The notes under the pieces: generated by a model
What the model saw: the letters and a program-made list of their open reading frames with translations, nothing else
Database searches by the model: none
Told to the model about the DNA's origin: nothing
NCBI GenBank assembly: GCA_016203135.1
Contig: JACQNI010000025.1
Coordinates: 1-48,816, forward strand
Direction: 5' to 3'
Origin: Candidatus Woesearchaeota archaeon
GTDB lineage: Archaea; Nanobdellota; Nanobdellia; SCGC-AAA011-G17; JACPNG01
Length of the DNA stretch: 48,816 nt
Position numbers and translations under genes: made by a program
In this document: positions 3,306-48,199 of the stretch, piece after piece
Layout: each line of letters starts with the position of its first letter
Position numbering within the stretch: position 1 is the first letter of the stretch

Positions 3306-3961
3306 TTCTTAATCCTCCATTTCAGCATTGAAATAGTTGCCCTTACCGCATCCCTTTTTCTCATTCCAAAGTTTTTATCAACATAAATAGTCTTCACTTC
3401 AACTTCTTTGCATCTTAATCCATTTTTTGCCACATTGACAGCAAATTCTGTTACAACACCATACCTTGATGAAGACCATCTTATCATTGGATAAGCCTTT
3501 GATGTAAAGGCATGGTATCCTGTCTGGGTATCTTTTACCTTTGAGTTAAATAAAATCTTTGCTATGAACGATAATCCCCAGTTTCCAAGCCTTCTTATCT
3601 TAGGCATGTTTTCGTTTCTAGGTCTTGAGCCAAAAACAATGTCTAAATTATATTCTTGAAGCGTTTTTAATAATTTTGGAATTTCTTCAGGATCATGCTG
3701 GCCATCTGCATCCAAAGTTATTATAATATCTGCCCTGTTTTTCATTGCCAAATCACATCCTACCCTTGTTGCAAAACCCGCCCCCATATTTGAAATCAGT
3801 CTTATCGCTTTTGCCCCTGCTTTTTTGGCTGTCTCATATGTATTATCCCTTGAATGATCATCTACAACTATAACCTCATCTACAAACCTTTTGGTTTTTT
3901 TGATGACTGGCTCTATCCTTTTTGATTCATTAAATGCCGGAATTACTGCTATTATTTTCAT
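3302..3961 (-). CDS. GT2 glycosyltransferase, dolichyl-phosphate hexose synthase (Dpm1)-like
   Basis: 219 aa. GT-A motifs AVIPAFNES, VVDDHSRDNT and DADGQHDP. Confidence 0.85.
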   Translation of the reverse strand: MKIIAVIPAFNESKRIEPVIKKTKRFVDEVIVVDDHSRDNTYETAKKAGAKAIRLISNMGAGFATRVGCDLAMKNRADIIITLDADGQHDPEEIPKLLKTLQEYNLDIVFGSRPRNENMPKIRRLGNWGLSFIAKILFNSKVKDTQTGYHAFTSKAYPMIRWSSSRYGVVTEFAVNVAKNGLRCKEVEVKTIYVDKNFGMRKRDAVRATISMLKWRIKK

Positions 3962-4419
3962 TTCTTTAGATATTTCACAATTTGATTAGCGATTTTTTCT
4001 TTTTCCTTTTCAGTAAACTTTAATATCTCTTTTTTAGTAAATACATCGATAAAATCCTGACCAACAGATCTATAAAATGGGATAATATGAAAATGAAAAT
4101 GTGAAATTAAGCCACCTGTTTGGACTAGAACAATTCTTTTTGGTTTAAATGCCTTTTTAATAGCTTTCGCTATATTATATAAGACTGATTGAAATTCAAT
4201 ATGCTCCTTAAGAGATAATTCTGTAACATCTTCAATATGTTTTTTAGTTCCTAAAATAGTATACCCTTCTGTTGGAGGATATTTATCTAATATTGCTATA
4301 AAATTTTTATCTTGATAGATAACTGGTTCTTTATTAAGTTCTGGCTTACATAAGAAACAATTTTTACCTTTCTTAATTGGTTTGATTTCTTTTCCTATAT
4401 TAAATTTTATCCTTTTCAT
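3958..4419 (-). CDS. HIT (histidine triad) family nucleotide hydrolase/transferase
   Basis: 153 aa. Histidine triad HFHFHIIP plus an N-terminal CFLC. Confidence 0.8.
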   Translation of the reverse strand: MKRIKFNIGKEIKPIKKGKNCFLCKPELNKEPVIYQDKNFIAILDKYPPTEGYTILGTKKHIEDVTELSLKEHIEFQSVLYNIAKAIKKAFKPKRIVLVQTGGLISHFHFHIIPFYRSVGQDFIDVFTKKEILKFTEKEKEKIANQIVKYLKK

Positions 4420-5897
4420 TTTTCCCTTATATTCTGTAAGTCATAAATCCAGTAAACTTCCTGGTCTTTTAAAATTAACTTTTCATTAGGCTCATATTTT
4501 GCGGTTAATTGATCTATTTGAGCTTGAAATTGATTCCCTCCTTTAGGATCTACTATTAAATATCTTACTGCTCTATTATTTGGGGTGAATAAAACAACCT
4601 TCTCTTCTAGATTTGGATCTCTTCCAAATTGCTGCCTAAATGCAAGATAAAAATTCCAGTCCTCTAGGCCTTGCTCCGGCCTGGAATAAAAAAATAATTC
4701 TGCAGGCTGTAAAATAAATGTTTCATTATCATTCATCATTGAATTCATTAAATTTCCTAGATCTTTTGCTGCATATGTTGACAATGCCGGATTACAACCA
4801 GTTTCTGATATTTTACATATCAATGGGTTTGCATAAGCAAAATATGGCGATGTCGAAAAGGCAACATAAAAAGAATAAGCAATATAGATTATTATAAATA
4901 CAAAAAATGCAATTCTTTTCTTTTCTTTGAATAAGTTTAGTATTGAATAATTTCTACTTGAAAAGGTTAAAGCCATTAAAAAGATAAAAGAGAATAAATA
5001 AGGAAGTGCAACCCTTGTAAAATGCAAGGCCTTGAAGAATACAAATGCAATTATTAACAAGCATACATAGTATAGTATGAATTTTTCTTCAGTTGTTTTT
5101 TTATTAATTATAAGGTAACCTAAAGTATAGAGGGATATTAAAAAAAGAGCTAGTTCTATTAGGTTTAATTCATAAAGGAAATTATTTATCAAAAAGCTAA
5201 AAATATTCAAGTTAAAGCTGATTCCAGATTCCATTGGACTATGGCTTTTATATGTCTGATAAACATCAAAAACATTTCCCAAGCTAAATTGAAACGGCAA
5301 TAAAAAGAAGAATGCAAAGATGATGCCAAATAATGCAATCAGCTTGATAAAATTCATTATGTTTGCGTTTTCTACATGAAAATCTAGATTTAATAATTTA
5401 TTAAGAATAAGTTTTATCTCTTGTAAATATTTTTCTCCAATTATGAATAGGTCAAATAACAAAAACAAGCCGAAAGACAATTTTGTTGCCCCCGCAAGAG
5501 CTATCGATATAGCGCTTAAGCCAAAAAACACTTTTTCTTTTTTAGAGTATTTTTCAGCCCTATAAGTTTCGTAGATGAAATAAAGATTTAATGCTAGAAA
5601 AAACCATAGAATTATGTCTACATGAATATATCTGCTATAGTTTAAAGTAAATGTATTAAAAGCAAAGAAGGTAGTTACAAATAAGGCAGAATATCTGTCT
5701 AGAATTGCAAAGGCAAGTAAAGACATAATAATAAAAAAGAAAAAACCAAGAACAAACATTGGCAACTGGCAAAAGTTTTGTGCCTTGACTATTTCCCTCC
5801 CAACTAGGTCTTCCCTTCCAGGATAAAACATTGGCTTTATCTCTGATACCTTAGAAAAATCCTCTCCAGATAATAAACAAGACAAGCCAATTATCAT
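4416..5897 (-). CDS. GT-C type polytopic membrane glycosyltransferase (ArnT/PMT_2-like); the true N-terminus probably lies further upstream
   Basis: 493 aa from ATG 5897, with many TM helices and a C-terminal soluble domain. The frame stays open 84 more codons, up to 6149, and encodes TM1 and an EPPLGH loop (see finding). Confidence 0.65.
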   Translation of the reverse strand: MIIGLSCLLSGEDFSKVSEIKPMFYPGREDLVGREIVKAQNFCQLPMFVLGFFFFIIMSLLAFAILDRYSALFVTTFFAFNTFTLNYSRYIHVDIILWFFLALNLYFIYETYRAEKYSKKEKVFFGLSAISIALAGATKLSFGLFLLFDLFIIGEKYLQEIKLILNKLLNLDFHVENANIMNFIKLIALFGIIFAFFFLLPFQFSLGNVFDVYQTYKSHSPMESGISFNLNIFSFLINNFLYELNLIELALFLISLYTLGYLIINKKTTEEKFILYYVCLLIIAFVFFKALHFTRVALPYLFSFIFLMALTFSSRNYSILNLFKEKKRIAFFVFIIIYIAYSFYVAFSTSPYFAYANPLICKISETGCNPALSTYAAKDLGNLMNSMMNDNETFILQPAELFFYSRPEQGLEDWNFYLAFRQQFGRDPNLEEKVVLFTPNNRAVRYLIVDPKGGNQFQAQIDQLTAKYEPNEKLILKDQEVYWIYDLQNIREK

Positions 5898-19088: not shown

Positions 19089-19502
19089 CTAACATATTAA
19101 TATTTTTGCCTCGATATACCTTGTATTAAAGCTGTCAGCAATTCCAGTATTACAGCTCCCAAGCCTATTATATTCATATTCCTGTGTTTTTATAGAAAGC
19201 CTATAATCCCTATCTAATTTACTCAATATGTTTCCTATCTCTTTGTCAAGTAGCTCTTTACAATCCATACTACATATAACCTTTCCAGTACTACAATCTT
19301 CAATTATTTCCTTTATCTGCTTGTCACAATTTACAGGTGTGTAAAACATCATGGCTCTTAAAAAATATGAACTTTCTACACTTTGCCTTAACTCTTGATT
19401 ATTATTGTTTTGTCCAGAAAAGGATATATAGAAAAAAAATATCACTATGAATAATATTACAATAACCAATAATCCAATTACCTCTGTTTGTGCCTTTTTC
19501 AT
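19089..19502 (-). CDS. type IV pilin-like protein (class III signal peptide), Cys-containing
   Basis: 137 aa. The N-terminus MKKAQTEVIGLLVIVILFIVIFFF is a basic-Ala/Gly-Gln prepilin-type motif followed by a hydrophobic helix. Confidence 0.5.
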   Translation of the reverse strand: MKKAQTEVIGLLVIVILFIVIFFFYISFSGQNNNNQELRQSVESSYFLRAMMFYTPVNCDKQIKEIIEDCSTGKVICSMDCKELLDKEIGNILSKLDRDYRLSIKTQEYEYNRLGSCNTGIADSFNTRYIEAKILIC

Positions 19503-19975
19503 TTATAATCCTCTATAACAAGCTTGCCTACCCTATATTCATTATCTGAATAATACAATGGAACTATAACAGATATTATGTCCTTGCTTCTAAAGTTTGG
19601 TCTTGGATTTTCATATAAAACAACAGCTTCTTCAGTTCCTGGATAAACATCCATGATTGTTATATTCCGAAAACCAAGCCTGCTAAAATAAAGTCCTTTG
19701 TTCTCGTTTATCTTATCGGTTTTTACCTTGTTCATATCTATGCAGTTCTGTTCTATGCCATTAAAACTGCATTCTATCTCAGGCATTGTCAAAATGCTTG
19801 CTAATAAAATATCTCGATCAATATCATTTAATCCAGATTCTGTTTTACCTATCTCAGCCAAGTAAAACCTGTAATAATAGAATATTCCAATTACCAATAT
19901 AAGGATTACAACTACTAAAACCATTATCATCTCAATCATTCCAACTTGTCCTTTCTTAGAATAAATATATCCCAC
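19499..19975 (-). CDS. type IV pilin-like protein (class III signal peptide)
   Basis: 158 aa from GTG 19975, beginning ..SKKGQVGMIEMIMVLVVVILILVIG. An alternative ATG at 19939 would delete the KKGQ motif. Confidence 0.5.
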   Translation of the reverse strand: MGYIYSKKGQVGMIEMIMVLVVVILILVIGIFYYYRFYLAEIGKTESGLNDIDRDILLASILTMPEIECSFNGIEQNCIDMNKVKTDKINENKGLYFSRLGFRNITIMDVYPGTEEAVVLYENPRPNFRSKDIISVIVPLYYSDNEYRVGKLVIEDYK

Positions 19976-20912
19976 AGTTCCCTCTTGCTTCTTTGTTTGA
20001 ATCTACCAGTTGATCTATCTTGGTCATTTTTGCATCAACATCATTTGAGTTAAGATTTTCTAGCTTAAGATTCTTTAATCCATTTAAGCCATTATTCAAC
20101 CCAGTCATTAAACCAGATCCAAATGATCCCTGTCCTGAACATATAGAAGCTAATGTATTTGCCTTCTCTTGATATATCTCTGAAACCCTGGTTAATCTTT
20201 CAAAGGCCTTATTTACATCACATTTATAATCTTCCAAACTATCAGAGAATATAGCCCCATAAAGCATCTCCTTGCCTATGAAAATACTTTCTCCATCAGA
20301 GAATTTAACTTTTCCTCGACATTTATAATTATCAGTTAAATCATCACAAGTATCTTTATAGCCATATATAACTACCCCATTTTCAATCTGATTTATATCC
20401 TGCCCAACAATTACCCTTTTTACCTTATCTCCATTATTAACAAATCTCTTAGGTATGAACTCAACATTATTCATATCTCCCCTTAAGTTTTTAGCAAGAT
20501 TATCTGTTCCCTCAATTACTATTTTTGTATCCCCAGAAACATAAAAGAAATTAGTAACCGGAAAAGGCATTCTCCATTTTGCTGTCCAGATATTTAATTT
20601 ATCCCCTTCAATATCCCTCTGAGAAAATATTATGTTTTCATTGTTTACTGGATTTACATTGTTTACTTGAACCTTGCCACAAGTAAATCTTATTTTCACA
20701 TCTTCATTCAAGTCTATTGTCTTGTCAGCGTTGCTTGAAACAGAAAAGCTATCAAAATTGCTATTTAATGTCCTTGACAAAACAGCAGAGTTTAATTCTT
20801 CTTTTAAAAATATTTGCTGCCTTGCAAAGTTTATGAAGAAAATAAGTATTATTGCCCCAGCAACAGCAATCAAAATATACTTAAAAGTCTCTTCCACACC
20901 CCTTTTATCCAT
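19956..20912 (-). CDS. secreted/membrane-anchored protein with pilin-like N-terminus
   Basis: About 318 aa from ATG 20912 (the track uses TTG 20921). The N-terminus reads MDKRGVEETFKYILIAVAGAIILIFFINF. First gene of a three-gene overlapping set. Confidence 0.45.
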   Translation of the reverse strand: MDKRGVEETFKYILIAVAGAIILIFFINFARQQIFLKEELNSAVLSRTLNSNFDSFSVSSNADKTIDLNEDVKIRFTCGKVQVNNVNPVNNENIIFSQRDIEGDKLNIWTAKWRMPFPVTNFFYVSGDTKIVIEGTDNLAKNLRGDMNNVEFIPKRFVNNGDKVKRVIVGQDINQIENGVVIYGYKDTCDDLTDNYKCRGKVKFSDGESIFIGKEMLYGAIFSDSLEDYKCDVNKAFERLTRVSEIYQEKANTLASICSGQGSFGSGLMTGLNNGLNGLKNLKLENLNSNDVDAKMTKIDQLVDSNKEARGNCGIYLF

Positions 20913-20962
20913 GAATTTCAATAATGAGCAATATTAATAAATTCTTCTATTAAAAACTAATT

Positions 20963-21946: not shown

Positions 21947-22422
21947 ACACAAACAGAAGAGAATTCTTGCTTGAGCTTATGATCCTTAAAGTCCTGCAAG
22001 ATGAAACGCCTTTAAAAACATTGGCAGAACAAGTAGCTCAGAAAACAGAAAAAATAACTACAGAAGGCAATGGCATAATAAAACTTTACAGGCATTTCAC
22101 AACAATTTCCTTAAGAATACATACAAAAGATTTTATTGCTGCTGTTAACAAAGAAGATAATTATCTTGCAATAGATTACATTCCAAAGAACTCTGAAGAA
22201 ATAAATAATCTTGTAGAAGGTGCTGGCAGGTTCATTGATTTAGGTATTGATGCTAAGTTTAAATATCAACATGAGCTGATTCCTAGTTATGCATTTCATG
22301 ATGGAAGAAAAATAAAACCCGCTACAGATCTTGCCTTATTTCTTGACTTGTATAAAAATGCATTAAATGCAATAGATAGTTTTTACACAAAAAGAAATCT
22401 AAGGGTATACGACAAAGCTTAA
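21943..22422 (+). CDS. hypothetical protein, ATGA-coupled to deoxyhypusine synthase
   Basis: 159 aa with no recognisable motif. Its 3' end overlaps the convergent giant gene by 24 nt. Confidence 0.5.
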   Translation: MNTNRREFLLELMILKVLQDETPLKTLAEQVAQKTEKITTEGNGIIKLYRHFTTISLRIHTKDFIAAVNKEDNYLAIDYIPKNSEEINNLVEGAGRFIDLGIDAKFKYQHELIPSYAFHDGRKIKPATDLALFLDLYKNALNAIDSFYTKRNLRVYDKA

Positions 22423-25400
22423 TTGATTGTCAAAAACATCCTTGCATATGATATTTAACTTGTCAGCTAAAGGAGCGCTATGAATTCCTTGAGACTTTGT
22501 CATTAAAGTTCCTGTTCCAAAATTAAACTGTTTATTGCTGAATTCGCAGTTAACTTCTTCATCTAATTCAATATTCAAGCTGCTTGCTGTAGAATATATC
22601 CTTAATATTTCTGGCCTGCTTAAGTCAACAGCAACATCAAAGCTGGTCTTTCCCTTAGCTTCATTGCCAGCTATGTCTTGACATGTAACAAAGTAATTAT
22701 ATCTTGCAGTTCCAAGTATCAGGCTTTGCTCATGCACCTTGCTGTTTGTGTTGATAAACTCTACTTTATTAAAAAATTCATCGCTTTCTTTCTCGCTGAA
22801 AGCGCATATTGCTTTTCCATTTTCTGCACCATTAGAAGTTACAACTTTTAGTGTTATATTTCCATTGAATATTGTTCCTGTAGGTTCAACTTTATCAATA
22901 TTCAATTTGCTTGTTTTTGTTAAGCTATAAGCAAAGCTCTGCTGCATAACATTCCTGTCTTTCTCCTCTTTTCCAGGCTGGTCTTTGCATTTAAAGAAGA
23001 ATTTATTTTCTCCTGTTGTTAAGCTACCTAACTTTGTTTTGCATTCAAACAATCCATAATGCAAAGCGTTTGTTATAAATCCGCTTGTTTGGCATTCAAA
23101 ATCATTTTTCATATTCCCATAATCTAAATCACTTTTATCCCATTTACATTCACTTGGTTCATTAACAAATATATCTACAGAAGTCTCATTGATATCACTT
23201 CTAATAAATGCCTTGTTTAAAGGACTTACCTCTTCAATTTTTGGTGGTGTTAAATCTGGTCCTGGTTTTACATTAAACCTTATGAAGTAATCAGCTTCGT
23301 TCTGATTTCCAGCAGCATCTTGGCATTTTATATATAATGTATGCTCTCCCTGGTTTGTCAATGCCAATGCCTCTTTGCTTGTTAGTTCAGCAGGCAAGTT
23401 CAATTCAATCTGGTGTTCATTAATGTATAAGTTTGTTCCAAAGAATGCAGTCATGTCATCATATTTCTTTCCTAGATCTTTATCAAACCTGCATTGTGCT
23501 GGCTCATCTGTTAATATTCCTAAAGTTACAGGAGTAAACGGCTCTATTTTTTCAGTTAATCTATACCCATTTGGAGTTTCATCTATGTTTCCCTTGATCA
23601 CATTTCTAAACGGAGTTATTTTCGGTGATCTAACATCATCAATATTTATTGCAACGCATTTTTCTTCTTTCTTTCCCTTATTTATCAAGCCACATTGCTG
23701 CCCTAAGCTTTTGCATCTATATTCAGAACAAGGTTTTTTAGGATCTTGATTGCATAATTCACATTTACTTCCACCTTTTGGAGGCTGCCATATCCCACAT
23801 CCAATCTGATAATTTTTTTCTTTTGTTTGTGCAAGTACAACATCAACTATAGAATAAACAGTATAAGCCCATAAAGCAATATTTACTGCTGCAAATATTC
23901 TTCCTAAATTACTTAATATAAAAGGTTTTCCTGCTACAGTTGTTGTTCCAGTTATTGCCCCTTTAACACCAAATCCAGATAAAAAAGGAACCCCTAAAAC
24001 AGATTTAGTTAATACTGCCCCACCACTAGATTTTAAAAGTACTCCTAATCCAATCAATGCAGTCAAAGCAATAGGCCCTCCTGGAGTAAAGTAATTCCAG
24101 CTGCTTGGTATATTCTTATTTACATCAGTAGAAGTTAACTTGCTAAAGTCTCCAAGATCTCTTTTTTGTAGTTTATATCCATCAAAATACAATCCATCTT
24201 TTTCCCTTTCAGAAGAAGCTGTATTTGTATATCCATCCAAAGAAGCATCTCCAGCTATGTTAAAGTAAGCCCCGCAGTCTCCCAAAGACTTACAATAATT
24301 ATTTCCAGCTATTACCCACTCCTGTGTTGTGCAATGCTCATTACCGTCAGGAGTAATTTTCCAAGAATCCACTCCAAATATTCTAGAAGCCCCTCCCCTT
24401 CTCCATTTAACATTGCATTCTAAACTTCCAGCTTCACAAACAGAATCCTTTGCTTTTGGAGAAAAGCTGCTTAATGAAACATCAGCTGCCTTTCCCCTTG
24501 TTGTTGATTCAATAAATTTAATACCCTCATTCCAAAATTTTATTCCTGGAGGTACATCAGGAGTGCAAACCCCCCCATAAGTTCTTAATATTTCTTGAGG
24601 CAATGCAACAGCGCTTATTCCCGAAGGATTCCAGAAACAATCCCTTGCAGCCCTGTCTTCACAACATTTCCTTGCACAGCAAGCAGTCTGTGCTTCATTC
24701 ACTTCTGTATCTTTAAAAGTATCTTCCAAGCCATCACATTCTCCTCCACATAACTCAGCTTCATTGCATTCAGTACAACTCTCCCACCTGTTAAATCTAC
24801 AAGCTGCTTCATTAAATCCTTGTTGTATTCCTGCTTCTTGTAATGAATTATCATTTATCTTGTCTTCAAAGCATAATTCTTCCCTAAAATCCTTGCAAGG
24901 CTCTACAATTTCTTCTCCATTTATACAAACAGTTCTAAAGTGTCTGCTTCCAACTAAGTCTCTTCCTTGTCCAACAGCCCCATCATATAAGCACCAAGAT
25001 TCTCCTGATTTTTTAGCACTTCCAGCACTAGGACTTGGAGCGCTTTTAGTTATATCTATACAAGCTGTTGACTTACAAATAAAATTTCCAACTATTGGCT
25101 TGACAGAAGTTGCATTCCCACAAATTGTTCCAGCAGTATAATCACAGTTCCCGCATCTTGGATCATTTGCATTAGCCTTGCAAATTTCTTGTTGTTGCTG
25201 ATCTGATAAAATAAATCCATTGTTGTAAGAAATTTCCTTGTTTGCATTGTAAATATTTTCTTTGTTTCCACAGCTGTCAAACCAATACACATCTTCTTCA
25301 GAGCATTTTGTTGTTTGTTGCTTTGCACATTCAGTTCCTAATGCTGAATTGCTGCATAAAAATCCCTTATGGAATCCAGTCTTAATTCCCTTAACATCTT

Positions 25401-25962
25401 TCTCTTGAACATTACAAAGCTGCTGGGTTGTTAAAACACATCTGCCATCTTCCTTTACACATGCCCCTAAATCTTCAGAAAAGCTCTTTTGCAAACATAA
25501 AGCCTCGCTTTGAATACTTTCATCAAAAACCATGTTTACATTTGGAAATTTTGCAGTTTCTAATTTGCATCTTGCTTGTGTTGTGAAAAATGCCTCATCC
25601 CCGATAATGCAGCATCCTTCTCTTGCTAATGGTATGTTACAATCTGCTGAATCAAAAAATTCTCCCTTCTTTGCAATGCAGTTTGCTTTTCCTACCTTCT
25701 TAAAGCATTTCCCTTCTGTTTCTATAAAACAGCTTCCAACCTTGCAAAAACTTGATTGTGCACAAGTAGCTGAAATCTCTCTCGAATTTTCTGCACATTT
25801 ATCTTTGCTTGTATATTGGCAAAATTCTCCATCAGTGGTTTTTTCACAGCATGTTTCTTGTTTTTGTGCAGAAACATTTTTTATATTCAATAAAGATATA
25901 GTAAAAACAGAGCTGATTAAGATTAATGCTAAAAATAAAGCCTTTATTTTTTTATCAATCAT
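22399..25962 (-). CDS. giant cysteine-rich surface/membrane protein with four C-terminal Ig-like repeats
   Basis: 1187 aa. The order is a signal peptide, a roughly 600-aa ectodomain with 47 Cys (manual count), a pair of TM helices (GGPIALTALIGLGVLL, IFAAVNIALWAYTVYSIVDVVLA), a Cys knot (CELCNQDPKKPCSEYRCKSLGQQC), then four repeats. Each repeat carries a ..EPxxC(R/K)(F/W).. and ..C(Q/K)DxxGN.. pattern. Confidence 0.8.
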   Translation of the reverse strand: MIDKKIKALFLALILISSVFTISLLNIKNVSAQKQETCCEKTTDGEFCQYTSKDKCAENSREISATCAQSSFCKVGSCFIETEGKCFKKVGKANCIAKKGEFFDSADCNIPLAREGCCIIGDEAFFTTQARCKLETAKFPNVNMVFDESIQSEALCLQKSFSEDLGACVKEDGRCVLTTQQLCNVQEKDVKGIKTGFHKGFLCSNSALGTECAKQQTTKCSEEDVYWFDSCGNKENIYNANKEISYNNGFILSDQQQQEICKANANDPRCGNCDYTAGTICGNATSVKPIVGNFICKSTACIDITKSAPSPSAGSAKKSGESWCLYDGAVGQGRDLVGSRHFRTVCINGEEIVEPCKDFREELCFEDKINDNSLQEAGIQQGFNEAACRFNRWESCTECNEAELCGGECDGLEDTFKDTEVNEAQTACCARKCCEDRAARDCFWNPSGISAVALPQEILRTYGGVCTPDVPPGIKFWNEGIKFIESTTRGKAADVSLSSFSPKAKDSVCEAGSLECNVKWRRGGASRIFGVDSWKITPDGNEHCTTQEWVIAGNNYCKSLGDCGAYFNIAGDASLDGYTNTASSEREKDGLYFDGYKLQKRDLGDFSKLTSTDVNKNIPSSWNYFTPGGPIALTALIGLGVLLKSSGGAVLTKSVLGVPFLSGFGVKGAITGTTTVAGKPFILSNLGRIFAAVNIALWAYTVYSIVDVVLAQTKEKNYQIGCGIWQPPKGGSKCELCNQDPKKPCSEYRCKSLGQQCGLINKGKKEEKCVAINIDDVRSPKITPFRNVIKGNIDETPNGYRLTEKIEPFTPVTLGILTDEPAQCRFDKDLGKKYDDMTAFFGTNLYINEHQIELNLPAELTSKEALALTNQGEHTLYIKCQDAAGNQNEADYFIRFNVKPGPDLTPPKIEEVSPLNKAFIRSDINETSVDIFVNEPSECKWDKSDLDYGNMKNDFECQTSGFITNALHYGLFECKTKLGSLTTGENKFFFKCKDQPGKEEKDRNVMQQSFAYSLTKTSKLNIDKVEPTGTIFNGNITLKVVTSNGAENGKAICAFSEKESDEFFNKVEFINTNSKVHEQSLILGTARYNYFVTCQDIAGNEAKGKTSFDVAVDLSRPEILRIYSTASSLNIELDEEVNCEFSNKQFNFGTGTLMTKSQGIHSAPLADKLNIICKDVFDNQLSFVVYP

Positions 25963-26738
25963 GCCGGCTCTCCCTCAACAGCAAATTGAAACACATAGCT
26001 ATTATCATCCCTTTTTACTTGATATACTTTATGTGGATATAATTTATTTAAGTATATCTTAAATTCTCCTTTTCTAAGCTGCATATAGCTTAATGTATCA
26101 AAAAATCCAAATGTTGCTTCATCATCTATTATATCTTGGCTTATTTCATATAACTCCCCCAAAGGATAATTAAAACTTTCTGTGAATTTATTCCTAGAAA
26201 CCATGTTATCTTTGCTTTTAAGAGTAACAGGATAATTTATATCTAGGATAACAGCCCTAGATTCAATTTTTGTTTTAACATCTAAAGTTCCAGTGGTTAT
26301 TTCATAGGGTTTAAATCTCTGAAAACTTGTAAAATCTAAACAGCCATTCAAGGATTGTTTTACATTCTCGCTGATTTGTGATTCCATCTCTTCTATTGTT
26401 AATAATCTGTTCATGCATGCTTCGTCATCAGGAATATTATAGCAAAGAAAACTTACTTCTGAATCTTTATATGATATGAAACTATAATCAACAGGTTCTA
26501 AATATCCCCCTTGTAATCCGATCTTTTCAATGATTTCATTTGCATTCTGCTCAGAGTCTCGATTCAAGCAGTCAATTATATTGCTTTCAATTTCATTCAA
26601 TTCCAGATTTAAATTTTCGGTAGTTGTTGGCAAAAAAATAGTTTTTCTTGCAACGAAAAAAAGACTTAAAATAACTACAATTACAATTCCAATAATTACA
26701 AATGCAGTAATCTGCCCTCTTTTTCCAAAAATAAACAT
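25959..26738 (-). CDS. type IV pilin-like protein (class III signal peptide), ATGA-coupled to the giant Cys-rich gene
   Basis: 259 aa. The N-terminus reads MFIFGKRGQITAFVIIGIVIVVILSLFF, and the body contains 5 Cys. Confidence 0.55.
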   Translation of the reverse strand: MFIFGKRGQITAFVIIGIVIVVILSLFFVARKTIFLPTTTENLNLELNEIESNIIDCLNRDSEQNANEIIEKIGLQGGYLEPVDYSFISYKDSEVSFLCYNIPDDEACMNRLLTIEEMESQISENVKQSLNGCLDFTSFQRFKPYEITTGTLDVKTKIESRAVILDINYPVTLKSKDNMVSRNKFTESFNYPLGELYEISQDIIDDEATFGFFDTLSYMQLRKGEFKIYLNKLYPHKVYQVKRDDNSYVFQFAVEGEPA

Positions 26739-27609: not shown

Positions 27610-27927
27610 TTAAACTGAATCTAGATAAGTAGCTACTACAGAACTATCATCCTTTTTAATTTCTCTAGTATAATCCATTGCCCTTTTATATTTTTCATTA
27701 ACTCTAACGATTTCATTACTATTAACACTATATTTATTTGCTAACGATATATATCTATCATAAGCCCCACTCATAGTTTCTTTAAGCTTATCTAGTTCTG
27801 ATATATCTCTGGCACCTATGCATATATTTAAAGATAACTCAGAGAGTTTATTCTCCAATCTTTCTAATTCCCTGCCATCACTAAAAGCTTCTTCGCTAGT
27901 AGTTTTAAGACTAAGTATTGGGTACAT
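27610..27927 (-). CDS. small helical hypothetical protein (paralogue A)
   Basis: 105 aa. Shares GRELE.L, a helical middle region and (N/E)(Q/E)KY..AM.Y with 27975..28280. Confidence 0.55.
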   Translation of the reverse strand: MYPILSLKTTSEEAFSDGRELERLENKLSELSLNICIGARDISELDKLKETMSGAYDRYISLANKYSVNSNEIVRVNEKYKRAMDYTREIKKDDSSVVATYLDSV

Positions 27928-27948
27928 TTTTAAAAGTAATTCAGTAAA

Positions 27949-27969
27949 ATTTATATTGCTTTTGGTATT
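27949..27969 (-). promoter_or_regulatory. BRE/TATA promoter module upstream of paralogue A (copy 2 of the 21-nt repeat)
   Basis: The minus strand reads AATACCAAAAGCAATATAAAT, about 25 nt from ATG 27927. Confidence 0.45.
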
Positions 27970-27974
27970 GTGAA

Positions 27975-28280
27975 TTAATATAATCCATAGTGTTTAAGAT
28001 AATTCATAGCATCTACATATTTCTGATTAATTTCAAAGATATCAGGTCCATTAACTTCATACCGAGATCCAAGTTCCTCAAATCTCTTATGAACAATATC
28101 CATGGCCCTCTTTAAATATTTCCTAAGGTCCAAGTCATCTTTATTACTTAAATTAACATTACTTATACTAAATATTAATGTGTGCAAAGAAGATATTTGA
28201 TCTATTAATTTTTCTAGTTCCCTTCCTTCCTTGAATCCTGCTTTTTCTCTTTCACTCTTAAAATTAATTTCTGCATACAT
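27975..28280 (-). CDS. small helical hypothetical protein (paralogue B)
   Basis: 101 aa, a tandem paralogue of 27610..27927. Both share the leader TGAATTACTTTTAAA(A)ATGTA. Confidence 0.55.
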   Translation of the reverse strand: MYAEINFKSEREKAGFKEGRELEKLIDQISSLHTLIFSISNVNLSNKDDLDLRKYLKRAMDIVHKRFEELGSRYEVNGPDIFEINQKYVDAMNYLKHYGLY

Positions 28281-28281
28281 T

Positions 28282-28656
28282 TTAAAAGTAATTCAATACA
28301 AAATATAATCCAGCAAAAAATAACAACAAAGCCATCAATCCTACATTAACTGTCAATGTAGCCATGAAAGCAAATACGCTTAGATAATTTCTTCCTATCA
28401 ATAAAGGCAATAATCCAAGTATGAATAATAATACAGCTGTTGTTATTGTCAATATCTTATACTTATCATAATAAATCTTCAATGAATCATAAAACATTAC
28501 AACAGAGCTAATTAATATTATAAAAGCCAGAAAAGTCCTGTTGAACAAAAAGCTAAGTCCTTGTATTTCAGATAGTAAATTTATCAAATATAATAAAGCT
28601 ATTAATATAGAGATTATACCGATTCCAAGCCTTGCATATTTAAGATAATTCTCCAT
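28282..28656 (-). CDS. four-helix membrane protein, unknown function
   Basis: 124 aa, almost entirely hydrophobic helices. Confidence 0.5.
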   Translation of the reverse strand: MENYLKYARLGIGIISILIALLYLINLLSEIQGLSFLFNRTFLAFIILISSVVMFYDSLKIYYDKYKILTITTAVLLFILGLLPLLIGRNYLSVFAFMATLTVNVGLMALLLFFAGLYFVLNYF

Positions 28657-28948
28657 GTAACATCTTTCTAACTTTTTGATATAAAAATTTATCTATTTTG
28701 CTTAAATCTTGTAAGGCATCCCCATAAAGCACTAATCCCTCATTTGACCTTACTAATTTGCCAAAAATCCTCACATAATCATTGTCTTTAACACTATTTT
28801 CCATTAAGACTCTTAAGCTTTGGCTTCCATCGTCAACAACAAAGCCATTTTCTTCCCTGTTTACCACAGTCCCAGTAATAGAAATATTAACATCTTCCTC
28901 TTTTATCCCAGATATATTTCTTTCATTATAGGCTTGAACTGTTTCCAT
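28640..28948 (-). CDS. OB-fold nucleic-acid-binding protein (RPA-like / tRNA_anti-type OB)
   Basis: 102 aa. ISITGTVVNREENGFVVDDGSQSLRV...DYVRIFGKLV fits the beta-strand pattern of single OB-fold proteins. Confidence 0.4.
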   Translation of the reverse strand: METVQAYNERNISGIKEEDVNISITGTVVNREENGFVVDDGSQSLRVLMENSVKDNDYVRIFGKLVRSNEGLVLYGDALQDLSKIDKFLYQKVRKMLHGELS

Positions 28949-38598: not shown

Positions 38599-40077
38599 CT
38601 AAATAGGATATCTCAACAAAGCAGCCTTGCCCCCAATAGTCTTTAGCTGTTCTCCCTCCCTTGTATTTACGGAAATTATAACGATTTTAGTTCCATAATT
38701 AAGCGCTTTTTCTTCATATTTCTCAATCTCTTTTTCATCCAGGTTTTCAGATAGCAGTAATTTATCAACAGCCCCCATTTCCAAAGCATGATCAACCTTG
38801 TCTCCATAACTAACCATATTTTCATTTTTCCCAAGCAATGTAAAAAATTCATTCAATATTGATTTTTCTTCTGTTATTTCTAAATTAACTAAAGCTTCCT
38901 GGCTTTTGTCAACTAATTCTTGTAATCCAAAATCCCCAGTATATCCCAAATCTTCAATAGCAACAACTTTCCTTTTCAGCTGTTCATTTAAATGACCGCC
39001 TTCTAAAAACTCTTCCTTAGTTGGTCCAGGTCCTCCAACTAAAATTCCCTTTAAATCCTTCATCTCCAAGAAAGCCTTGTTTGCTGCTTCCCCAATTCTC
39101 CTATAAAATTCTTTAGCAGCCCCTTCTCTTAACCTTTCAAATCTGGCTGCTGAGTTATGTACAATTAGACCGTTGGCTATGAAGTTTTTATTTTCTACTT
39201 CTATATCTATCATATTTACATTTTTTTTATTTATTTTTAACGAATCTATTTTAAATATTTTTAAGTCATCATGTAATAAACCATCATTAGTTTTTAATTC
39301 GTTTGCATATTTTGTTTTAGGATTTCCAATAAATACTAAATGATCTTCAGAACATTTTAAAATTTTATTCCCATTTTTAATTACAATTGTCTTATCTTTT
39401 TTAACATCCCATTTTTTCAGAACTCTAGATGGTTGAAATTTTTTTGTTTTAAAATTATAAGACTTAACTAAATCTCCTTCCTTGACATCTTTTAATAAAA
39501 TCTTACTATTATTATATAATGTAATTAAAGTATCTGGCATAACACATTGCCCCCCAGCCTTCGTCTTTCCAGGAACACCAGAGGTCATATGAACAATGCT
39601 TTCAATTCTTGTTCCTTTTAATGTTCCAACATCTCCTTCTCTTCTATCTAAAACAATCAATCCAAAAATCTCTTTTGTCTCTAGCATCTCTATTAAAGGA
39701 TCAAGTAAAAAAGTCTGATCACACCTATACAATCTAAAATTCAAAGGCTCAGGAGGCTCAAGACTCCAGACTTTTATGTCTATTTTGCTTTCATTCTCAG
39801 AAGCATTTCCTGCAAACAAAGCAAGGCCATTTTCAGGAGTTTTTTTGTACAATCTTAAATGCCTTATGCATCTTTCTAAACTGTCTATAACGTTCTTCCT
39901 AGTCCTAGCGTCCTTGATATTTTGTGCTGTTGATTGTTCCTCTGCCAAATGCTGGTTTATTTTGTTTAAATCATAGTCTTTAGGAACAAAAACAGAAACT
40001 AATTCAGTATGCCTTCCTCTTATCTTTTTTAATTCATTGATAAATTTCTTGAGTTTTACTCTATCTTGTAATTTCAT
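38599..40077 (-). CDS. prf1: peptide chain release factor aRF1, interrupted by a mini-intein
   Basis: 492 aa. The aRF1 N-domain and the ...GVPGKTKAGGQ | intein | SAARFERLREGAAKEFY... junction reconstitute the GGQSA.RF motif. The extein is 361 aa. Confidence 0.85.
   Translation of the reverse strand: MKLQDRVKLKKFINELKKIRGRHTELVSVFVPKDYDLNKINQHLAEEQSTAQNIKDARTRKNVIDSLERCIRHLRLYKKTPENGLALFAGNASENESKIDIKVWSLEPPEPLNFRLYRCDQTFLLDPLIEMLETKEIFGLIVLDRREGDVGTLKGTRIESIVHMTSGVPGKTKAGGQCVMPDTLITLYNNSKILLKDVKEGDLVKSYNFKTKKFQPSRVLKKWDVKKDKTIVIKNGNKILKCSEDHLVFIGNPKTKYANELKTNDGLLHDDLKIFKIDSLKINKKNVNMIDIEVENKNFIANGLIVHNSAARFERLREGAAKEFYRRIGEAANKAFLEMKDLKGILVGGPGPTKEEFLEGGHLNEQLKRKVVAIEDLGYTGDFGLQELVDKSQEALVNLEITEEKSILNEFFTLLGKNENMVSYGDKVDHALEMGAVDKLLLSENLDEKEIEKYEEKALNYGTKIVIISVNTREGEQLKTIGGKAALLRYPI
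39154..39546 (-). mobile_element. mini-intein (131 aa, no homing endonuclease domain) within aRF1
   Basis: Begins with Cys (CVMPDTLI, block A). Block B-like SEDH. Ends ...FIANGLIVHN, followed by the +1 Ser of the extein. Codons checked on the sequence: TGT at 39546..39544 and AAC at 39156..39154. Confidence 0.8.
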
Positions 40078-44978: not shown

Positions 44979-45398
44979 ATGTCAATTTATGATAAAGATC
45001 AGCAAGAAGTAGTAAACAAAACAGCTTCAAAGCTAAAAACATTGCTTAAAGCCCCGGAATGGAGTTATTTCGTAAAGACAGGAGCTGGAAAAGAAAGGCC
45101 CCCAGTAGATAATGATTGGTGGTACTATAGAGCTGCATCAGTTTTAAGAAAAGTATACTTAATGGGCCCTATCGGAGTTAGTAAATTAAGAACAAAGTAT
45201 GGTAGTAAAAAGAATCGAGGTCATAAACCAGAAAGATTCTACAAAGGTTCTGGAAAAGTGATAAGAACAGTTTTACAGCAACTCGAAGAGGCAAGCTTAA
45301 TAGAAAAATCAAAAAAGGGTCTTCGCAAAGGCAGGATTATAACAAACAAAGGAAAAAGCTTATTGGAAAAAGATGAACTTAAATCAAAAAAATCTTGA
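44979..45398 (+). CDS. rps19e: ribosomal protein eS19
   Basis: 139 aa. PEWSYFVKTGAGKERPP..DWWYYRAASVLRKVYL...GSGKVIRTVLQQLE. Confidence 0.9.
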   Translation: MSIYDKDQQEVVNKTASKLKTLLKAPEWSYFVKTGAGKERPPVDNDWWYYRAASVLRKVYLMGPIGVSKLRTKYGSKKNRGHKPERFYKGSGKVIRTVLQQLEEASLIEKSKKGLRKGRIITNKGKSLLEKDELKSKKS

Positions 45399-45669
45399 GA
45401 AAATGCAGGAAGAACAATTACAAGAAAAACAGCTTCAAGATCAAATAGACCAAATTGAAAACATAGCAAAGCAATATTTATCAAAAGAAGCTTTATCAAG
45501 ATATAATAATTTAAAGCTTGCTCATAAAGAAAAGGCAATGCAGATAACAATTATCATTGCCCAAGCAGCTCAATCAGGTCAGATTAAAAGAAAATTGACA
45601 GATGAAGAGTTAAAAAATTTACTACGAGAATTAGATCAAAACAAAAAGGAATTTAAAATAAAAAAATGA
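45373..45669 (+). CDS. PDCD5/MTH1615-family DNA-binding protein
   Basis: LSKEALSRYNNLKLAHKEKAMQITIIIAQAAQSGQIKRKLTDEELKNLL, in the conserved position between rps19e and rpl39e. ATG 45403 (88 aa) is an alternative start that avoids the 26-nt overlap. Confidence 0.7.
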   Translation: MNLNQKNLEKMQEEQLQEKQLQDQIDQIENIAKQYLSKEALSRYNNLKLAHKEKAMQITIIIAQAAQSGQIKRKLTDEELKNLLRELDQNKKEFKIKK

Positions 45670-45833
45670 GCAAAAAACCTTTAGCAAAGAAATTAAGATT
45701 GGGAAAAAAATCTAGCCAAACTAGATGGGCCCCTTTTTGGACTGTTGCAAAAATCTATAGAAGAAACAGAGTTCATCCTGGAAGGCATACTTATGTTAAA
45801 AGAAGTTGGAGAAGAACCAGAACAAAAAGTTAA
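45666..45833 (+). CDS. rpl39e: ribosomal protein eL39
   Basis: 55 aa, below the track cutoff. Hand-translated as MSKKPLAKKLRLGKKSSQTRWAPFWTVAKIYRRNRVHPGRHTYVKRSWRRTRTKS*. ATGA overlap with the upstream gene. Confidence 0.85.
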   Translation: MSKKPLAKKLRLGKKSSQTRWAPFWTVAKIYRRNRVHPGRHTYVKRSWRRTRTKS

Positions 45834-45835
45834 AA

Positions 45836-46297
45836 ATGGCAAATCTTGAAAGACTATACACAATACCCTTAAGAAAGAAATTCCTTAAGGCTCCAAGGTA
45901 TAAAAGAAGTAAAAAAGTTATTTCTACAATAAGAACTTTCATAAGCAAAAATATGAAAAATCCAACAGTAAAAATTGGTTCTATGTTAAATGAAGAAGTT
46001 TTAAAGCATGGCAGAAAAAATCCCCCTCATAAAATAAGGGTCAAAGCTATAAGATATGATGAGCCAAGTTTTGTAAAAGTAGATTTGCCAAATGCAGTTT
46101 TTGAAGATCCATTAAAAGAAAAAGGAAAGAAGGAAAAGAAAAAGGAGAAAGAAGAATTAAAAGAAGAAGAGCTAGAAAAAAAAGAAGTTCTTGAGCATGC
46201 AAAGCTAGAGCATCATCCAGAAGAAAAAATAAAAGTAGAAAAAGGAAAAAAACCTTCTAGAAAAGAAAAAGTAATAAGTGAAACAGGCAAGAGATAA
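45836..46297 (+). CDS. rpl31e: ribosomal protein eL31 with long Lys/Glu-rich C-terminal tail
   Basis: 153 aa from ATG 45836 (the track start 45806 is a non-ATG upstream start that overlaps the rpl39e 3' end). YTIPLRK...PRYKRSKKVIS.IR.F. The core is about 85 aa, followed by about 65 aa of a K/E tail. Confidence 0.85.
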   Translation: MANLERLYTIPLRKKFLKAPRYKRSKKVISTIRTFISKNMKNPTVKIGSMLNEEVLKHGRKNPPHKIRVKAIRYDEPSFVKVDLPNAVFEDPLKEKGKKEKKKEKEELKEEELEKKEVLEHAKLEHHPEEKIKVEKGKKPSRKEKVISETGKR

Positions 46298-46327
46298 TCT
46301 TTTATAACTTTTTATCAACTAAGTTCT

Positions 46328-47327
46328 ATGGAAAAGCTCCCATTTGAAAGAGAACTAAAAATTTTAACAAGAAAAGAGTCAGAAACAGATCCAAGTTTTG
46401 GTGTAATACCAGAAAAAAGATCTACTGAAGAGCTATTAAATTATGGAGTATTAACAATAAACAAACCACAAGGGCCGACTTCACATCAAGTTGCAGATTA
46501 TGTTAAAAAAATACTTCATATAGACAAAGCTGGTCATGGTGGGACTCTAGATAAATAAGAGAAATCCCAATGTAACCGGTATTTTGCCAGTAGCCCTTGG
46601 AAAAGCGACAAGAATAGCTCAAGCATTGTTAAAATCTGGAAAAGAATATGTTTGTATAATGCATTTACACTCAGATATAGACGAAGAAAAAATAAGAAAA
46701 GCAATGCAGGAATACATTGGCAAGATTCAGCAAATGCCTCCAATAAAAAGCGCTGTTAAAAGACAATTAAGAACCAGAGAAATTTATTACATAGACATTC
46801 TTGAAATAAAAGGAAAAGACGTTTTGTTCAAGATTGGCTGCCAAGCAGGAACTTATATAAGAAAATATTGTCATGATTTTGGAAAAAGACTAAATACAGA
46901 TGCACATATGCAGGAATTAATAAGAACAAAAGCCGGCCCTTTTACAGACAAAGAAATGTATTCCTTGCATGACTTGCAAGATGCTTATGTCTTCTACAAA
47001 GAAGGTGATGATAAAGAACTAAGAAAAATAATAAAGCCAATAGAATTCGCAGTTCAACACTTGCCAAAGATCTGGGTTTTTGATTCTGCTGTCGATAGCC
47101 TATGTCATGGCTCTTCTTTATACTTTGGCGGTATATCAAAATTAAATTCTGACATAGAAAAAGAAGATTTGGTTGCAGTTCTGACCTTAAAAAATGAATT
47201 GGTTGGTCTTGGTTATTCAGAAGCAACTAGCAAAGAACTGCTAGAACAAGAAAAAGGAATTGCTGTAAAAACATCAAAGGTTTTTATGGATATAAACATA
47301 TATCAAAAATTAACAAATAAAATATAA
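46328..47327 (+). CDS. cbf5: pseudouridine synthase Cbf5 (TruB family + PUA), join(46328..46550,46564..47327) after removal of a 13-nt intron
   Basis: Two abutting track ORFs carry KAGHGGTLD... and ...PNVTGILPVALGKATR. Splicing gives GHGGTLDPNVTGILPVALG and a 328-aa protein of normal Cbf5 length with a C-terminal PUA-like region. Confidence 0.85.
46551..46563 (+). other. 13-nt bulge-helix-bulge intron in cbf5 pre-mRNA
   Basis: T-GGGA-CTCT-AG|A-TAAATA-AGAG-AA|A-TCCC-A. Outer helix 46540-44/46565-69. Central 4-bp helix 46545-48/46558-61. 3-nt bulge AAA. The excised segment ATAAATAAGAGAA contains the in-frame TAA. Confidence 0.75.
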
Positions 47328-47350
47328 ACAGAAAAAACTTAAAAAATAAC

Positions 47351-48199
47351 ATGAAAATATTAGTTATAGGAGATTTTCACGGAAATTTCTCAAAAAAATT
47401 TAATAAAATAATTGATAAAGAGAATATAAACTTAGTTGTTTCCCTTGGTGATTATCCTCCTTTTCATTACAGAAAAATCTGGTTTAAACATTGTTATCGA
47501 AAAGATGTTGAACTCTGGGAGGTTATAGGAAAGAAAAAATATAAAGAATTAGTTTCTAAGGATTTAAGACTAGCGGAAAACGCATTAAACAAATTAAATA
47601 AACTTAAAGTGCCTATTTATACTACTCTTGGAAATATTGATTGGCCTTCTCCAGATGATATTATGGACATTATGAAGAAAACTAAAAAATCAATGCCAAA
47701 CTTTGATAAAAAGGATAGATTAACAAAAAGATTAAAGAATTATAAAAATATAAAAAGACTTGACTATCGAGCACTAAAGTTTAAAGATTATGTTTTTATT
47801 GGAATGAGGGGGCACAGCCATCCCGGGAAAGTTAAAAGTAAAGCATTTAGAAAACATAAGAAAATCATTGAAGGATTATTTAAAAAATTTAAAAAAGAAA
47901 ATAAAAATAATAAAGTTATTTTTGTTTCTCATAATGTTCCTTACAATACCAAATTAGACAAAATAGGAAAACATGCCCATAAAGAAGTAAGAGGAAAACA
48001 TTTTGGCTCTAAATTAGCAAAAAGAATTATTACAAAGTACCAACCAATTTTAGCTTTGGGAGGCCATATACATGAATCATCTGGAAGAGACAAAATAAAA
48101 AAAACAACCATAATAAATCCGGGCGCAGCAAATGTGGGGAAAGGAGCCATTATTGAAATTGTCAAAGGGAGTATAAAAAATATAGAATTCCTTAAATGA
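47351..48199 (+). CDS. calcineurin-like metallophosphoesterase
   Basis: 282 aa. The motif series is VIGDFHG, LGDY, GNIDWP, VSHNVP and GGHIHES. Confidence 0.8.
   Translation: MKILVIGDFHGNFSKKFNKIIDKENINLVVSLGDYPPFHYRKIWFKHCYRKDVELWEVIGKKKYKELVSKDLRLAENALNKLNKLKVPIYTTLGNIDWPSPDDIMDIMKKTKKSMPNFDKKDRLTKRLKNYKNIKRLDYRALKFKDYVFIGMRGHSHPGKVKSKAFRKHKKIIEGLFKKFKKENKNNKVIFVSHNVPYNTKLDKIGKHAHKEVRGKHFGSKLAKRIITKYQPILALGGHIHESSGRDKIKKTTIINPGAANVGKGAIIEIVKGSIKNIEFLK

Follow-up and report, generated by a model that had tools for sequence, protein, structure and literature searches.

The cbf5 gene in the 48,816-nucleotide (nt) contig JACQNI010000025.1 of a Candidatus Woesearchaeota archaeon (assembly GCA_016203135.1), analysed here over its full length and called the window below, is interrupted by 13 nt at the codon of the catalytic aspartate of the pseudouridine synthase Cbf5. 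Judged from its sequence and from those of its relatives, this insert is the bulge-helix-bulge (BHB) intron of the cbf5 catalytic-Asp codon, an element of a known kind found in an unexpected host lineage and in a minimal 13-nt form. We infer with considerable confidence that the tRNA splicing endonuclease EndA excises positions 46551..46563 from the cbf5 pre-mRNA and that an RtcB-type ligase joins the exons. A preliminary description of this stretch had proposed a BHB intron, and the proposal is borne out by insertions of variable length at the same nucleotide in relatives, by the covariation of the central helix and by a cutting rule that holds in all of these relatives.

The open reading frame (ORF) 46328..46558 encodes 76 amino acids (aa) and its translation ends with ...KAGHGGTLDK*, positions 46537..46558 reading ...GGT GGG ACT CTA GAT AAA TAA, while the +1 frame is open from 46551 to 47327 and reads INKRNPNVTGILPVALGK...; translation thus agrees with the ending and the continuation given in the preliminary description. 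Deletion of 46551..46563 in silico yields a Cbf5 protein of 328 aa, as had been predicted, with the restored motif ...GHGGTLDPNVTGILP... and the junction stretch ...GHGGTLDPNVTGILPVALGK... The spliced product contains the DKCLD, TruB_N, TruB_C_2 and PUA domains, scores 444 bits against the NCBIfam Cbf5 equivalog (cut-off 242) and aligns with Cbf5 of Pyrococcus furiosus (PDB 3lwo) without a gap over the junction (E = 4e-114). The intron separates the first base of the catalytic Asp codon from the second (junction G|AT, 46550/46564). The in-frame TAA that had been placed inside it is indeed there, and the expectation that automated annotation would split the gene also proved right, this essential gene being called as two ORFs in the window and in its relatives. 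The claim that the GAT codon for Asp exists only after splicing was mistaken for the window, where the unspliced reading already has it (GTLDK*); it is true of relatives described below, such as L061 (GTLEN*) and L070 (GTLVY*). The parts of the gene are as follows.

46328..46550, + strand: cbf5 exon 1, from the ATG up to the G that opens the catalytic Asp codon; codes for DKCLD and the beginning of TruB_N (..KAGHGGTL + G).
46551..46563, + strand: predicted intron, 13 nt, AUAAAUAAGAGAA; the in-frame UAA at 46556..46558 terminates the unspliced ORF.
46564..47327, + strand: cbf5 exon 2, from the AT of the Asp codon through PNVTGILP... to the stop; codes for the remaining TruB_N, TruB_C_2 and PUA.

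The proposed structure is the minimum-free-energy fold found by RNAfold both for 46530..46580 (-15 kcal/mol, z = -2.65) and for 46540..46569 (-7.6 kcal/mol, z = -1.8). Its elements are listed here in the order of the sequence.

46540..46544, + strand: outer exon-exon helix, 5' strand UGGGA, pairing with 46565..46569; 93% of the cells are paired over 11 loci.
46545..46548, + strand: central helix of 4 base pairs (bp), 5' strand CUCU, formed by bases 2-3 of the Thr codon and bases 1-2 of the Leu codon and pairing with 46558..46561; 100% paired.
46549..46551, + strand: 5' bulge AGA, with the predicted cut 46550|46551 (cutting rule of PMC2738675).
46552..46557, + strand: inner segment UAAAUA, with the lone closing pair U46552-A46557 and an AAAU loop.
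46558..46561, + strand: central helix, 3' strand AGAG, within the intron; assigned from fold and covariation.
46562..46564, + strand: 3' bulge AAA, with the predicted cut 46563|46564.
46565..46569, + strand: outer helix, 3' strand UCCCA, formed by base 3 of Asp, all of the Pro codon and base 1 of Asn; assigned from the fold and from pairing across loci.

With an outer helix of 5 bp, a central helix of 4 bp and an AGA bulge that is closed by one U-A pair and a tetraloop, the motif is a relaxed BHB, close to the bulge-helix-loop (BHL) form, and the inner segment 46552..46557 is the vestige of the inner helix h'. The strict canonical hBHBh' form is found not in the window but in the homologous introns of L061, L070, L209 and L211. 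The helices UGGGA/UCCCA and CUCU/AGAG and the AAA bulge of the preliminary description are therefore reproduced by RNAfold; the canonical geometry is not, the 5' bulge being closed by that single pair. An extended outer pairing, CUGGU.../...ACCGG, is also predicted in the window and was dropped, as it is not kept in the relatives.

The comparative evidence comes from relatives found without reference to the structure. A protein-guided scan of species-representative archaeal (GTDB) genomes gave 79 cbf5 loci, the nearest being those of Woesearchaeota/Nanoarchaeota metagenome-assembled genomes (MAGs) with 57-66% identity (63-66% for Woesearchaeota MAGs). Only two of the 79 have a split reading frame, both at the same residue as in the window: L061 (Woesearchaeota RIFCSPLOWO2_01_FULL_28_39) has a 29-nt insert and L070 (Nanoarchaeia SO_2017_SWC_27) a 23-nt insert. 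A protein search with the 76-aa fragment returned 31 matches, about 17 of which are ORFs of 69-80 aa that stop 0-4 codons after GTL; they end in GTLE, GTLEN, GTLEIRI, GTLEKY, GTLV, GTLVY, GTLAVKK or GTLD, and the first base of the codon after GTL is always G. DNA was retrieved for 12 of these short ORFs, and the structure-blind set consists of the window and 14 other loci (13 distinct).

All insertions in this set fall between the G and the AU or AC of the Asp codon. Their lengths (13, 13, 15, 15, 15, 15, 15, 16, 16, 18, 22, 22, 23 and 29 nt) show no periodicity of 3n, and 13-nt introns occur, besides the window, in L210 and in the metagenome contig L149. Without splicing, the catalytic Asp codon is absent in L061, L070, L205 and others. 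Every locus has an outer helix between the exons (GGGA/UCCC or a variant of it), a central helix of 4 bp and AG|N as its 5' bulge; the 3' bulge is AA|A in 13 of the 14 loci and CU|A in L061. Cutting in silico after the second nucleotide of each bulge gives GTLDP in the window and in all 14 relatives. In L212 (about 400-470) the Asp codon is completed as G|AC; its outer helix is displaced (UGG/CCA with unpaired bases) and its motif is more relaxed than the others. A neighbour-joining tree, calculated with no support values, places most of the intron-bearing Woesearchaeota-like sequences in one sub-clade, within which the intron-less L002, L004, L036 and L037 are nested; the distribution is therefore patchy, as it is in Crenarchaeota.

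Covariation was computed on 11 loci, all from the structure-blind set. None of the 44 cells of the central helix is unpaired; the pair types are UA:5, CG:3, GC:2 and AU:1 at one position and CG:6 and UA:5 at another, so that two of its four pairs carry compensatory changes on both sides. None of 500 shuffles reached the observed covariation score, and sliding the 3' partners by 1-3 columns lowered the pairing from 96.6% to at most 62.5%. The helix tracks synonymous variation at base 3 of the Thr codon and base 1 of the Leu codon, appearing as CUCU/AGAG, CACU/AGUG, CGUU/AACG or CCUU/AAGG. The inner segment begins and ends with complementary bases in all 11 loci. Among the 13-nt introns this closing pair is U..A (window), C..G (L210, CUAAAG) or G..C (L149, GUAAGC), and its retention in all three means that the 3-nt 5' bulge is still delimited even in minimal introns.

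A wider scan of metagenomes with the pattern GGGACWCTAG-N(5-35)-AGWG-NN-ATCCCAANGT matched at least 120 contigs (L080-L199), and all 120 matches listed lie within cbf5. The following figures refer to these listed matches. When spliced in silico, every contig with the whole gene gives a Cbf5 that can be aligned to almost the whole of the window protein. The introns are 13-36 nt long with no periodicity of 3n and comprise at least 101 distinct sequences; 41 of the 101 are of 3n length, and every one of the 41 contains an in-frame stop. The inner stem, which the pattern does not demand, averages 4.1 bp over the 101 distinct introns, compared with 0.53 bp after shuffling, and 98 of the 101, taken as Bathyarchaeia-like, have the 3' bulge AA|A. 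Most contigs have 40-50% G+C, and their Cbf5 proteins are 71-77% identical to full-length proteins, with 71-72% to proteins that NCBI names Cbf5 [Candidatus Bathy...]; because of this identity we regard these contigs as Bathyarchaeia-like. Against the loci of named genomes the best identity of the group is about 60%, which is taxonomically uninformative. A typical Bathyarchaeia-like intron is a canonical BHB intron of the form A-GGCUU..loop..AAGCC-AGAG-AA, for example in L099 (3216-3258) and L133 (2309-2353). Low-G+C relatives of the window are represented by L102, L118, L124 and L149, the last of these having the 13-nt intron AGUAAGCAGAGAA, and a third, divergent low-G+C lineage by L158 and L170. 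Introns of 16 and 36 nt stand at the same site in this third lineage (L170 584-619, L158 931-986), whose Cbf5 is about 40-45% identical to that of the window and carries the motif SHFGTLDPKVTG. The cbf5 genes of L076 (about 3550-5030) and L118 were also seen to contain a large LAGLIDADG-type intein after GTYIRK(L/I), in the form ...RKL|C....SSN|CHDLG; in L118 a 16-nt BHB intron (623-658) and the intein downstream of it share the same gene.

The 13 nt, the 76-aa ORF and the surrounding 500 bases are identical in the assemblies of SRR12113424 and SRR12113430, which effectively excludes the 13-nt assembly error considered in the preliminary description. Compared with the closest relative, L200 (82% identity in exon 1, 15-nt intron), the ratio of nonsynonymous to synonymous substitution rates (dN/dS) is 0.089 in exon 1 and 0.066 in exon 2, values that are approximate with dS near saturation. 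By this measure both exons are under purifying selection.

Several observations weigh against a spliced intron. A bare descriptor of the motif (outer and central Watson-Crick helices of 4 bp each, two 3-nt bulges and 4-40 nt inside) has 187 matches in the window and about 194 in random sequence of the same first-order composition; since the motif is as frequent as in random sequence, the fold alone is not significant and is not usable as evidence. At the single register required, the descriptor is expected by chance with a probability of about 0.002, and the significance of the candidate intron is a matter of the exact restoration of the Cbf5 motif together with the comparative data. A search of the whole window for BHB-like motifs that, once removed, join two open frames gave a single convincing case, the one in cbf5; each of the 8 other matches is on a non-coding strand or in an intergenic spacer that parts two genes. 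The inner helix of the window intron is down to one U-A pair, and a canonical BHB is needed by strict alpha4 or alpha'2 endonucleases. The cut sites 46550|46551 and 46563|46564 were chosen by rule: because AT flanks both ends of the intron, three deletion registers (46551-63, 46552-64 and 46553-65) give an identical product, so that the cuts are not fixed by the DNA and are assigned by the BHB cutting rule. The earlier claim of cleavage after the second bulge nucleotide thus holds in so far as it restores GTLDP in all relatives, while the DNA alone leaves the three registers. The metagenome pattern demanded the central helix, and for this helix only the 14 structure-blind loci count. Pfam scans of 50 ORFs found neither EndA nor RtcB in the 48.8-kb window, and the exact spliced proteins of the window and of five relatives were absent among 15 billion proteins.

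Explanations that do without splicing fare much worse. It is very unlikely that cbf5 is a split gene, the 76-aa polypeptide and one of about 247 aa (start TTG at 46584) assembling without splicing in the manner of the Nanoarchaeum split genes. Split genes are a known feature of DPANN genomes, and the exactly two ORFs predicted by gene callers in the window and its relatives are what such an arrangement would give. The first in-frame start at 46584 comes, however, after PNVTGI, and the active-site loop DPxVTG would be lost, whereas DPxVTGVLP is still encoded in every relative once the intron is removed; in unspliced L061, L070, L205 and others there is no catalytic Asp codon, and the helix covariation would find no explanation. 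We would give slightly less credence still to a pseudogene, that is, to a cbf5 that lost its function in a reduced genome through the 13-nt insertion. A disrupted frame with a stop soon after would fit this, but both exons are intact and under purifying selection (dN/dS 0.07-0.09). Moreover, the sole lesion would sit at one nucleotide position common to 14 Woesearchaeota-like loci and at least 120 mainly Bathyarchaeia-like contigs, with insert sequences that differ between lineages while the frame-restoring structure is kept.

Translational recoding, in which the ribosome would bypass the 13 nt or shift frame across them with no splicing of the RNA, is highly improbable. The stop soon after the break, inside a hairpin, bears a superficial resemblance to bypass signals. 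Yet the inserts of 13-36 nt fall into all three frame classes, and those of 3n length have in-frame stops (15 and 18 nt in the relatives, and 41 of the 101 distinct introns among the matches listed). Matching take-off and landing codons are absent, a simple +1 shift would leave four extra residues beside the catalytic Asp, and in most relatives the Asp codon needs a G joined to AU or AC, which translation cannot do. An artefact of assembly or sequencing has almost no probability: nothing was found in its favour beyond the generic concern about metagenome assemblies, and against it stand the identity of the sequence in two independent run-level assemblies and the window and the homologous insertions in dozens of unrelated datasets.

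If the 13 nt are removed by splicing, as we consider far more probable, the following course of events may be envisaged. The exons flanking the intron would pair in the pre-mRNA (UGGGA/UCCCA), and the last four paired bases of exon 1, CUCU, would pair with AGAG of the intron, an arrangement that copies the anticodon arm of a pre-tRNA whose intron is at position 37/38. In each bulge EndA would cut between nucleotides 2 and 3 (46550|46551 and 46563|46564), and an RtcB-type ligase would join the exons to CUA G|AU CCC. The joined mRNA would be translated into the 328-aa Cbf5 with an intact GHGGTLDPNVTG active site, and the unspliced mRNA would give only the 76-aa fragment, stopping at the intron UAA. 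The intron may also have a regulatory role, and negative regulation was proposed by the discoverers of the crenarchaeal cbf5 intron (PMC2738675).

The extension of the phenomenon to DPANN-like hosts, suggested in the preliminary description, stands in that the host is Woesearchaeota-like; the intron is not peculiar to the window genome, being common in Woesearchaeota-like and Bathyarchaeia-like contigs. BHB introns are regarded as very rare in the protein-coding genes of archaea. An intron in the same codon phase is now seen in three further groups, namely the Woesearchaeota-like DPANN, at least 120 mostly Bathyarchaeia-like contigs and the third low-G+C lineage, and from these comparisons the cbf5 Asp-codon intron has a far wider distribution than the literature records. 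The question of its origin, 'still unclear' according to its discoverers, is thereby reopened. A speculative and rather doubtful proposal is that the intron is either ancient, predating the split of DPANN and TACK with many subsequent losses, or recurrently targeted to this site by reverse splicing or gene conversion, and that in either case it lets the tRNA splicing machinery gate the synthesis of the pseudouridine synthase. Half of an endonuclease recognition motif is already provided by the coding sequence GGGAC..(G)AUCCC, and this would allow recurrent targeting. If the gate exists, the synthesis of the rRNA/tRNA pseudouridine synthase depends on tRNA splicing activity. The more than 100 natural variants, down to the 13-nt minimal form, offer material for the study of substrate recognition by the endonuclease. 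We take cbf5 (TIGR00425) to serve as an archaeal phylogenomic and completeness marker; if it does, overlooked introns would distort both the alignments of this marker and the completeness estimated for these lineages.

In the surroundings of the gene, the order on the + strand over 44979..48199 is S19e, a PF01984 dsDNA-binding protein, a 55-aa basic ORF, L31e, cbf5 and a metallophosphoesterase, and it is kept in those intron-bearing relatives whose contigs extend that far. The very basic 55-aa ORF (45666..45833) is probably ribosomal protein L39e, with no Pfam match at 1e-5. No tRNA genes (ARAGORN) and no Rfam families at gathering score were found in the 48.8-kb window. Consecutive ORFs with no Pfam match occupy 19089..20921 (-), 22399..26738 (-, including a protein of 1187 aa) and 27610..28948 (-). 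The gene of the peptide-chain release factor aRF1 at 38599..40077 (-) encodes 492 aa, or 361 aa without a 131-aa mini-intein-like insertion (CVMPD...LIVHN, 39154..39546, -), which splits the universal GGQ motif precisely between GGQ and SAARF and has weak matches to intein N- and C-terminal splicing regions.

Among known systems, the cbf5 intron was still assigned in a 2023 review to only a small set of related archaea. We found no literature on cbf5 introns in DPANN, Woesearchaeota or Bathyarchaeia/Bathyarchaeota, in a survey whose coverage is incomplete and does not guarantee priority. The HVO_1309 intron of Haloferax volcanii (PMC7714728, as summarised in PMC10485636) lies in an archaeal mRNA processed by the tRNA splicing endonuclease; the window intron would likewise be removed from an mRNA by this enzyme, and it differs in gene, lineage and site.

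In a pre-tRNA with an intron at position 37/38, the anticodon stem is the exon-exon helix, and a 4-bp pairing links the 5' exon to the 3' portion of the intron. The window intron shares with the canonical form of this pre-tRNA intron (hBHBh'; Marck and Grosjean 2003) the geometry and the splice sites after the second bulge nucleotide, and its 13 nt are within the 11-175 nt range cited for pre-tRNA introns. It differs in that its surroundings are a protein-coding mRNA and not a tRNA body, and the enzyme must therefore recognise the motif alone, in competition with translating ribosomes. Kaneta et al. 2018 (PMC5829648) distinguish the relaxed forms hBH, HBh' and BHL and report that EndAs of diverse DPANN lineages, in a dataset with four added DPANN genomes of which one is from Woesearchaeota, mostly have an L3 loop, a feature associated with non-canonical tRNA introns. 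As in the relaxed BHB/BHL substrates treated there (non-canonical tRNA introns and the joined tRNA halves of Nanoarchaeum), one site in the window intron lies in a 3-nt bulge and the other practically in a loop; unlike BHL substrates, it keeps a conserved single closing pair that still defines a 3-nt bulge, and its longer relatives are fully canonical. By analogy with this literature the host endonuclease is probably of the L3-loop DPANN type and not the crenarchaeal (alpha-beta)2 enzyme with a CSL loop, and given L3-loop EndAs in DPANN lineages the cleavage of a near-BHL substrate seems plausible.

The closest counterpart is the cbf5 pre-mRNA intron of Desulfurococcales and Sulfolobales (Aeropyrum pernix, Sulfolobus/Saccharolobus spp.), reportedly the subject of work by Watanabe in 2002 and Yoshinari in 2006. 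According to Yokobori et al. 2009 (PMC2738675), the crenarchaeal cbf5 introns are mostly relaxed motifs of 16-44 bp, interrupt the catalytic Asp codon after its first base, have predicted cuts between bulge nucleotides 2 and 3, and are absent from Thermoproteales, Thaumarchaeota, Korarchaeum and Nanoarchaeum. Here the host is a mesophilic Woesearchaeota-like member of another superphylum, DPANN, with 31% G+C and not a hyperthermophilic crenarchaeon, and the window intron, with its 13 nt and an inner helix of one pair, is shorter than the published 16-44 bp. The size of 16-44 bp and a host in Desulfurococcales/Sulfolobales, neither of which applies here, describe the known sample and not the mechanism. 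The likeness, which is one of site and structure by published description, extends to the gene, the insertion point, the codon phase and the bulge cut rule, and likewise to introns that are mostly of the relaxed BHB type, short, free of ORFs, not of 3n lengths and patchily distributed in their clade.

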